From the NCBI RefSeq assembly GCF_056746865.1, contig NZ_CM163382.1: DNA of 64,000 bases; one strand, given 5' to 3'. The notes under the pieces are model-generated. The model made no database searches. It was not told where the DNA came from and saw only the letters and a program-made list of their open reading frames with translations. Each line of letters begins with the position of its first letter. Position 1 is the stretch's first letter. A program made the translations under genes and the position numbers. Shown piece after piece: positions 554 to 44,490 of this stretch.

Positions 554-813
554 GGTGTTTCCTCACCTTGCTCTTCCTGCTGGTGATAAACCAGCGACAC
601 CGCCAGCACGCCCTCTACGTTGCGTACTGACTCAATGGTTTGAATCAGCGTTTCGCTGTCTTCTGCTTCCACCACCACAATCAACTGACCGCTCGGCGCG
701 TCGCTGACAGCAACTTCACAGCCGGGAAAGGCGTTCAGTTGGGTGCTGATGTCTGAAATTCGTTCGCTTTTGGCCTGCACGACCAGGCTGCAAACTTGCC
801 AGTTAGTGTGCAT
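550..813 (-). CDS. napD: NapD, chaperone for NapA maturation (87 aa)
   Basis: ORF track protein [17 protein letters not shown]...; stop overlaps napA start; position between napF and napA. Confidence 0.9.
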
Positions 814-1297
814 GGAGATACTCCGCAGTTATGGCTGATACCGGACAGCTGGCTGCACATGCTCCACATCCGTTGCAAAGTTGGCTATTAAGTTGCGGCT
901 GGTAGATCCCGGAGAGCGTCGGGCGAAAGATAATTGCCATTGGCTCACAGCTATCCTGACAGCGGCGGCATTCAACTGTTTGATACGCCAGGCACGCCTC
1001 CCCGATGGTGAACAGCAAATCCCAGGCCCTGGTGTGGCGCGGAGAAAATAGCGATTCGGGGCAAGCCTGCGCGCAGGCGTAACAGAAGCTGCACTCGTTA
1101 TTTTTGAAATTAACGCTCGGATAGCCACCCGCGCCGCGTTGCAGAATGTTGTTTTCACAAGCATTAATACAGGCGTCGCAGCGAGTGCAATGGGTCAGAA
1201 AATGAGATTCATCACCGGACCAGGGCGGACGGATACCGTTACTGGCTTTGCGCCAGCGACCAGTGAGTATGCCCCGACGGGATGCATCAATCTTCAC
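803..1297 (-). CDS. napF: NapF, ferredoxin-type iron-sulfur protein (164 aa)
   Basis: Several CxxCxxCxxxCP 4Fe-4S motifs in translation; first gene of nap operon; overlaps napD start. Confidence 0.9.
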   Translation of the reverse strand: MKIDASRRGILTGRWRKASNGIRPPWSGDESHFLTHCTRCDACINACENNILQRGAGGYPSVNFKNNECSFCYACAQACPESLFSPRHTRAWDLLFTIGEACLAYQTVECRRCQDSCEPMAIIFRPTLSGIYQPQLNSQLCNGCGACAASCPVSAITAEYLHAH

Positions 1298-1410
1298 ATT
1301 GACCTTCCATCATTAACGCGCTCTGAAAATTGAGAGCGACCAAATAAACCGCATAATTAATAAGCCATTTTTATAGCCGCTAAGATATTAAAGGATGTGT
1401 CAAAGATGCA

Positions 1411-1426
1411 TACCCCGATCGGGGTA
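1411..1426 (-). promoter_or_regulatory. Perfect 16-bp palindrome TACCCCGATCGGGGTA, NarP/NarL 7-2-7 type site in napF promoter
   Basis: Palindrome read directly; heptamer TACCCCT-like halves; lies about 115 bp upstream of napF start. Confidence 0.6.
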
Positions 1427-1431
1427 AAACC

Positions 1432-1445
1432 TGTAGCAGGATCAA
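1432..1445 (-). promoter_or_regulatory. Candidate FNR half-site pair (TGTAG-N4-ATCAA) about 20 bp upstream of the NarP palindrome
   Basis: One perfect ATCAA half-site; spacing to NarP site fits the -64.5/-44.5 architecture described for napF; other half-site is weak. Confidence 0.4.
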
Positions 1446-1704
1446 AAGAGTGGCGGGAAGCGTGGCAAAAACGGGCTTTTGCTCACATTTCAAATGGTTA
1501 TAAACATACTTATATAGCGATTAATTCACCAGAGATATTTATGTCGGTTTGTTCTCTCACCAGAATTTAACACTAAAAGAGCAGGTAAAATTGTCTGAAT
1601 GTTCTTTAAGTTATTCATAAAGCAAATTAATAAATCTGATGAATATGTTAACCTTCAGCGACATCATCGGTGAAAACCTATAAATGAAGAAGGAAAGCAA
1701 AAAA

Positions 1705-10170: not shown

Positions 10171-10316
10171 ACTTTTTAAGATTATTGTGGAATGGCGAAA
10201 TAAGCACCTAACATCAAGCAATAATAATTCAAGGTTAAAATCAATAACTTATTCTTAAGTATTTGACAGCACTGAATGTCAAAACAAAACCTTCACTCGC
10301 AACTAGAATAACTCCC

Positions 10317-10409
10317 GCTATCATCATTAACTTTATTTATTACCGTCATTCATTTCTGAATGTCTGTTTACCCCTATTTCAACCGGATGCCTCGCATCCG
10401 GTTTTTTTT
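10317..10409 (+). ncRNA. micF: MicF antisense small RNA (regulator of ompF), ~93 nt
   Basis: Sequence GCTATCATCATTAACTTTATTTATTACCGTCATTCATTTCTGAATGTCTGTTTACCCCTATTTCAACCGGATGCCTCGCATCCGGTTTTTTTT, ending in a hairpin plus U-run; divergent from ompC. Confidence 0.85.

Positions 10410-14065: not shown

Positions 14066-14259
<194 letters not shown>

Positions 14260-14265
<6 letters not shown>

Positions 14266-44284: not shown

Positions 44285-44490
<206 letters not shown>

Follow-up and report, generated by a model that had tools for sequence, protein, structure and literature searches.

Promoters activated by FNR fall into class II, with the FNR site centred at -41.5, and class I, with the site at -61.5 and beyond, by further integral helical turns. 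The 7-2-7 sites of the class represented by nirB, nrfA, fdnG and yeaR consist of two inverted TACYYMT-type heptamers placed 2 bp apart, and those of nirB and nrfA lie around -70. A NarL/NarP 7-2-7 site has been reported for four genes, napF among them, and the binding of NarP is restricted to this arrangement (PMC2718512). FNR and phospho-NarP activate napF, and phospho-NarL antagonises at the same site by blocking the binding of phospho-NarP; napF expression is maximal at low nitrate (PMC9262595).

The napF site shares the paired inverted heptamers and the 2-bp spacing with the other members of its class. However, position 7 of its heptamers is G, in place of the T of the consensus, and the site lies next to the polymerase, at -44.5, whereas the others lie further upstream. 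In addition, NarL acts at napF as an antagonist and not as a strong activator. The FNR site likewise resembles those of canonical FNR-activated promoters in its TTGAT half-site, its N4 spacing and its anaerobic activation, but its centre, at -64.5, does not fall in step with the usual positions, and its second half-site is CTACA, which matches only two of the five bases of ATCAA. The control region of napF (aeg-46.5) and its promoter P1 were described by Darwin & Stewart 1995, Darwin et al. 1998 and Stewart et al. 2003. The locus considered here has the same flanking genes as the K-12 region and the same sequence through both sites, and positions 1411-1445 are almost certainly the core of that known control region, with FNR and NarP/NarL sites as in K-12.

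The napF-eco locus

The window, that is, the whole 64-kb stretch of DNA that was analysed, begins inside napA, which is followed in the list of open reading frames by napD (550-813) and napF (803-1297), on the minus strand. The start codon of napF is GTG, at 1297 on that strand. The gene eco (ecotin) is divergent from napF, on the plus strand, with its start at 1684 or 1705 and its end at 2193, and is followed by mqo, yojI and alkB. The RefSeq annotations of strain 118UI and of K-12 MG1655 confirm this gene order. As judged from its sequence, the locus is the napF-eco region of E. coli: a 561-bp query over the napF-eco intergenic region found matches in 5,421 of 5,426 complete E. coli genomes, with 100% identity in E. 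coli 118UI.

The annotation of the eco start codon differs between the two strains: 118UI uses the upstream ATG (1684), which gives 169 aa, and K-12 uses an ATG 21 nt downstream (1705), which gives 162 aa. REP-like repeats lie between eco and mqo (about 2200-2340). Further along the window, Rfam places MicF next to ompC (10316-10409, plus strand) and gives three intergenic matches to naRNA4, a REP-derived nucleoid-associated RNA, including those at 14070-14260 and 44334-44404. MicF and these REP-type elements are consistent with the same chromosomal neighbourhood.

The features discussed below are as follows; positions with a minus sign are relative to the putative P1 start, and the basis of each entry is given in brackets.

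803-1297, minus strand: coding sequence of napF (164 aa), with which the regulated operon begins (open reading frame; RefSeq annotation of 118UI and K-12)
1374, minus strand: putative P1 transcription start (A), giving a 77-nt leader to the napF GTG (arithmetic from the -44.5 centre; the A is invariant across species)
1382-1387, minus strand: putative P1 -10 hexamer TATCTT, -13 to -8 (placed from the -44.5 centre; invariant in 8/8 sequences)
1385-1390, minus strand: putative P2 -10 hexamer TAATAT, which overlaps the P1 hexamer and is shifted upstream from it by 3 nt (sequence; the dual promoters reported for napF)
1393-1400, minus strand: conserved block ACACATCC, -26 to -19, in the spacer that separates the -35 and -10 regions (7/8 columns invariant)
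1411-1426, minus strand: NarP/NarL 7-2-7 site TACCCCG-AT-CGGGGTA, centred at -44.5 from the putative P1 start (sequence, K-12 identity, conservation, literature)
1432-1445, minus strand: FNR site TTGAT-CCTG-CTACA, centred at -64.5 (sequence, conservation, published ChIP peak)
1475-1491, minus strand: conserved block GAAATGTGAGCAAAAGC, -117 to -101, with a CRP-type TGTGA half-site (alignment)
1496-1520, minus strand: ModE-type operator-like palindrome TCGCTATATAA-GTATGT-TTATAACC, centred at about -133.5 (half-sites conserved in Escherichia and Citrobacter; spacer variable)

A sequence-only reading of this DNA had described a perfect 16-bp palindrome and, 20 bp further upstream, an FNR-like site with one consensus half, and both descriptions hold. 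The palindrome, TACCCCGATCGGGGTA at 1411-1426, is its own reverse complement and is the sole perfect 16-bp palindrome of the window. When compared with the inverted TACYYMT consensus, each of its heptamers matches at 6 of 7 positions, the only misses being at position 7, and the 2-bp spacer is exact. The FNR-like site, TGTAGCAGGATCAA at 1432-1445, reads TTGAT-CCTG-CTACA on the napF strand; its distal half, TTGAT (1441-1445), is a perfect FNR half-site, and the two centres, at 1418.5 and 1438.5, are 20 bp apart. Since napF is on the minus strand, higher window coordinates are indeed further upstream for this gene. The same reading had called the left FNR half-site weak. This stands as regards the weakness, the match of CTACA (1432-1436) to ATCAA being two of five, but "left" has to be understood as promoter-proximal relative to napF.

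At its centre (CGATCG, 1416-1421), the palindrome includes a Dam GATC. Because Citrobacter has CAATTG or CGATTG at this place, the GATC is not conserved and is probably incidental.

Chance expectation and conservation

Neither motif is distinctive alone. Perfect 16-bp palindromes occurred at a mean of 1.38 per simulated window in a first-order Markov model, and 76% of the simulations contained at least one. Under the strict consensus TACYYMT-NN-AKRRGTA the napF site has 2 mismatches, and the window contains 2 sites this good against 3.0 expected. The FNR site has 3 mismatches in all to TTGAT-N4-ATCAA, a chance-level score within the window, where FNR-like sites with 3 mismatches number 354 (254 in shuffles), or about one per 200 bp. 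The palindrome and the FNR-like motif are each statistically unremarkable within the window, and the case for them therefore rests on context, that is, on their position, the identity with K-12, the conservation and the published ChIP peak.

The alignment with the characterised K-12 napF promoter, which the earlier reading had named as the check on its proposal, gives identity through both sites. Counted upstream from the start codon of napF, K-12 MG1655 is identical base for base over 211 bp; in P1 numbering the identity reaches to about -127, and the differences from K-12 are nine substitutions clustered beyond that point. Two of the nine fall in the spacer of the ModE-type palindrome, which is GTATGT here and ATATAT in K-12; this spacer is variable between species too. 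Of 5,410 E. coli genomes, only 151, strain 042 among them, have the 76-bp upstream allele around the palindrome in identical form.

Of 5,421 E. coli genomes, 4,929 have a 65-bp core (1396-1460) that does not differ from the one here. In a further 443 genomes (O157:H7, O145 and relatives) the core carries one change, which turns the promoter-distal heptamer into TACCTCG; the change breaks the perfect palindrome, yet the heptamer stays within TACYYMT. The divergent E. coli strain MFDS1006657 has TTGATCCGACAACA, with the 7-2-7 site unchanged.

To compare genera, one genome per species was scanned with NapF, and the matches listed contained at least seven orthologous loci (E. coli, E. albertii, four Citrobacter and Leclercia). 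The matches listed also included those to a generic ferredoxin motif, CNGCGACA; Salmonella, Klebsiella and others are outside the recovered set. The footprint alignment built on these loci contains eight sequences, which represent about four independent lineages.

In this alignment, all five columns of TTGAT are invariant in all eight sequences. The proximal FNR half has the form C-W-A-C-W, with C-62, A-60 and C-59 invariant, and ATCAA is never seen in Escherichia, Citrobacter or Leclercia. Of the 16 columns that make up the 7-2-7 site, 13 are invariant; variation is confined to position 5 in the distal heptamer and, in both heptamers, to position 7. Position 7 is G, A or C depending on the species and would therefore be unconstrained. 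Two Citrobacter carry TACCCCAATTGGGGTA, which is also a perfect palindrome. The palindrome is imperfect in O157:H7, E. albertii, one Citrobacter and Leclercia, and its perfection is thus dispensable. TATCTT is invariant in 6/6 columns, and none of the eight sequences has an insertion or deletion between the FNR site and the -10 hexamer. From -93 to -72, identity is only 73%, with 3 invariant columns out of 22. This pattern is what would be expected for protein-binding sites of fixed geometry.

These results bear directly on the idea that the palindrome and the FNR-like match arose by chance and do nothing in this strain. The idea has the frequencies in its favour, as chance alone should give a window some 1.4 perfect 16-bp palindromes, and three-mismatch FNR-like sites are plentiful; the identity to the characterised K-12 region, the conservation across genera with fixed spacing and the ChIP peak at the site all contradict it. 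We give it a negligible probability and consider it effectively refuted by the conservation.

Could the conservation come instead from protein coding? The small open reading frame yojO is annotated on the plus strand at 1406-1570 (54 codons); it starts 5 bp before the palindrome and its frame runs through both sites, and RefSeq annotates it in K-12 and in the majority of E. coli genomes, under the name "protein YojO" or as a "hypothetical protein". However, a stop limits the frame to 15-20 codons in E. albertii, three Citrobacter, Leclercia and the E. coli strains SCPM-O-B-8794 and MFDS1006657, where the DNA sites are still conserved, and the conservation stops at the edges of the binding sites and lacks a codon pattern. 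Since the frame is cut in relatives, coding constraint does not explain the conservation, and we regard this explanation as extremely improbable. Conserved regulatory DNA seems the better description of the sites, and yojO, whose conservation does not extend beyond E. coli, is probably an artefact of annotation on top of it.

A further alternative is that the palindrome forms an RNA hairpin, as a terminator or processing signal, in a transcript that crosses the intergenic region. Such a hairpin would have a 6-bp stem and a GAUC loop, and a 51-nt segment on the plus strand folds at -12.8 kcal/mol (z = -2.4), but the z score for the minus strand is only -1.4, neither strand has a T-run after the palindrome, and a terminator scan makes no call. 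Within the napF leader, a sigma-70-like sequence (1330-1357, plus strand; TTGAGA-16-CATAAT, 10/12) is directed across the palindrome, yet such matches are at about chance level (1 found, 1.6 expected). The palindrome is outside the napF mRNA because it lies upstream of the napF start. Moreover, the innermost positions, -46 and -43, vary: they are G/C in E. coli and A/T in two Citrobacter, where the palindrome is still perfect, but are mismatched in Citrobacter youngae ATCC (G/T) and Leclercia (C/T), and position -48 differs in O157:H7, E. albertii and Leclercia. These mismatched versions suit tolerated heptamer positions better than a conserved stem, and we give the hairpin hardly any credence beside a NarP/NarL site.

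DNA-pattern scans of metagenomes for the FNR/7-2-7 architecture gave 0 and 4 matches, and none of the four resembles a nap promoter. Two of them (L026, 422-460, and L029, 3576-3614) are one AT-rich sequence, TTGATAATTATATAGTTCTTTACCACCCTCGGGGTATGC, that mimics the FNR/7-2-7 spacing, most likely by chance; an open reading frame scan of L026 found no long frames and no nap genes. The other two (L027 and L028) appear to be matches within unrelated G+C-rich sequence.

Promoter positions, FNR occupancy and other upstream elements

The napF 7-2-7 site has been placed at -40 to -49 (PMC4549865), a span whose centre is -44.5. We anchored the numbering by setting the palindrome centre at this position, so that agreement with a -44.5/-64.5 architecture is partly circular. 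The FNR site of napF is reportedly at -64.5, and the 20-bp distance between the centres reproduces this value. The architecture proposed for napF in the sequence-only reading is thus borne out, its -44.5 coming from the published span and its -64.5 from the reported position together with the 20-bp spacing. The arrangement of P1 is present: the 20-bp spacing lies upstream of napF, and TATCTT occupies -13 to -8.

Reportedly, napF has dual overlapping promoters, P1 and P2. A second reading of the positions is therefore that both sites act mainly through P2, whose start would be 3 nt upstream, so that FNR would be at the conventional class I position of -61.5 and NarP at -41.5, which are textbook activator positions. 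The -10-like hexamer TAATAT, which overlaps TATCTT at an offset of 3 nt, is what this reading requires, and the term "proximal promoter" in one account implies two starts (PMC9262595). However, TATCTT is invariant in 8/8 sequences, whereas the first base of TAATAT is replaced by A in Citrobacter and Leclercia. In addition, it is P1 that is said to carry the FNR- and NarP-dependent regulation, and P2 is said to be only weakly activated by FNR and to be inhibited by NarP-P and NarL-P. We regard action mainly through P2 as very unlikely and keep P1 as the regulated promoter. From its putative start, the FNR site at -64.5 lies outside the conventional class I and class II geometry, and -61.5 is obtained only from the minor start P2.

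The published FNR data place a ChIP peak in the interval from napF to yojO, at positions 2301669-2301675 of the old K-12 numbering (Myers et al., PMC3688515 Table S5). With a shift of +1978, this ChIP-seq (MOSAiCS) / ChIP-chip peak maps to 1447-1453 of the window, at most about 15 bp from the centre of the FNR site. We take +1978 to be the shift from old to current K-12 coordinates; it is consistent with fnr, whose peak then lies 80 bp upstream of fnr. The napF/yojO peak was called by only two of four methods, and the table of peaks gives it small values, 0.55 and 0.30, where many other peaks have about 1-2 (PMC3688515). The PatSer ln p of napF is -5.37, compared with -16.5 for nirB, -13.3 for narG and -10.3 for nrfA, which puts napF among the weakest bound sites; napF is classed as requiring co-activation by NarP, and its FNR-dependent expression needs NarP (PMC3688515). 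A weak peak and a weak motif are what is expected of an FNR target with one half-site in nitrate-free medium.

Since the proximal half departs from the consensus in the same way in all the genera compared, it is conceivable, if rather doubtful, that selection holds it non-consensus, either as a design feature that ties FNR occupancy to NarP-P bound 20 bp away or because its bases are read by another protein.

Upstream of the two sites, the ModE-type palindrome lies where a napF ModE site is said to be, at -133.5. The block GAAATGTGAGCAAAAGC has a mean column identity of 87%; it hardly varies among Escherichia and Citrobacter and is absent in Leclercia. A Crp site with a role in catabolite control is reported to lie upstream of the napF FNR and NarP sites, and this block may be that site. 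Activation of nap by ModE has been cited in a review, which also notes an interaction of ArcZ with napF mRNA detected by RIL-seq (PMC8139620). On the napF strand, the leader of this mRNA contains a hairpin and T-run that weakly resemble a terminator (1336-1352, minus strand), a combination that occurs at about chance frequency.

Between the -35 and -10 regions, the conservation of ACACATCC is explained by neither promoter hexamer. Repression by IscR is a candidate explanation, but the IscR type-2 pattern is at chance level in the window, with 135 matches against 133.9 expected, the nearest of them at 1345-1369.

Proposed mechanism of napF activation

The sequences of the two sites, their spacing, their identity with K-12, their conservation and the agreement with the published ChIP peak are direct observations, and the scheme that follows is built on them. 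Binding of phospho-NarP and phospho-NarL at 1411-1426 would be as described in the literature on the identical K-12 sequence. What the scheme says about protein binding in general, about where transcription starts, about NarP-NarL competition and about FNR-NarP synergy comes either from that literature or from deduction.

Under anaerobiosis, an FNR dimer would bind TTGAT-CCTG-CTACA at -64.5, mainly through the TTGAT half. When nitrate or nitrite is low, a phospho-NarP dimer would bind the inverted heptamers TACCCCG-AT-CGGGGTA at -44.5. The two sites being two helical turns apart, the proteins would lie on nearly the same face of the DNA and could jointly recruit or activate RNA polymerase at P1, with TATCTT as the -10 hexamer and a start near 1374. 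When nitrate is high, phospho-NarL would compete for the 7-2-7 site and activate poorly, and expression would thus peak at low nitrate. ModE, and probably Crp, would act further upstream. A single consensus FNR half fits both a weak occupancy by FNR when NarP is absent and the need for synergy.

The napF control region is already known, and there is nothing new in its core. The strain has the K-12 sequence unchanged, and the value of the locus for discovery is accordingly small; what mild interest it has lies in the conserved weak FNR half and in the doubt about yojO. In biological terms, the region is a classic case of co-dependent activation, in which the oxygen sensor FNR acts with the nitrate/nitrite response regulator NarP and the homologue NarL competes. 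Across Escherichia, Citrobacter and Leclercia, the spacing stays fixed and the second FNR half stays weak; these results fit this model of synergy, and their value is modest.
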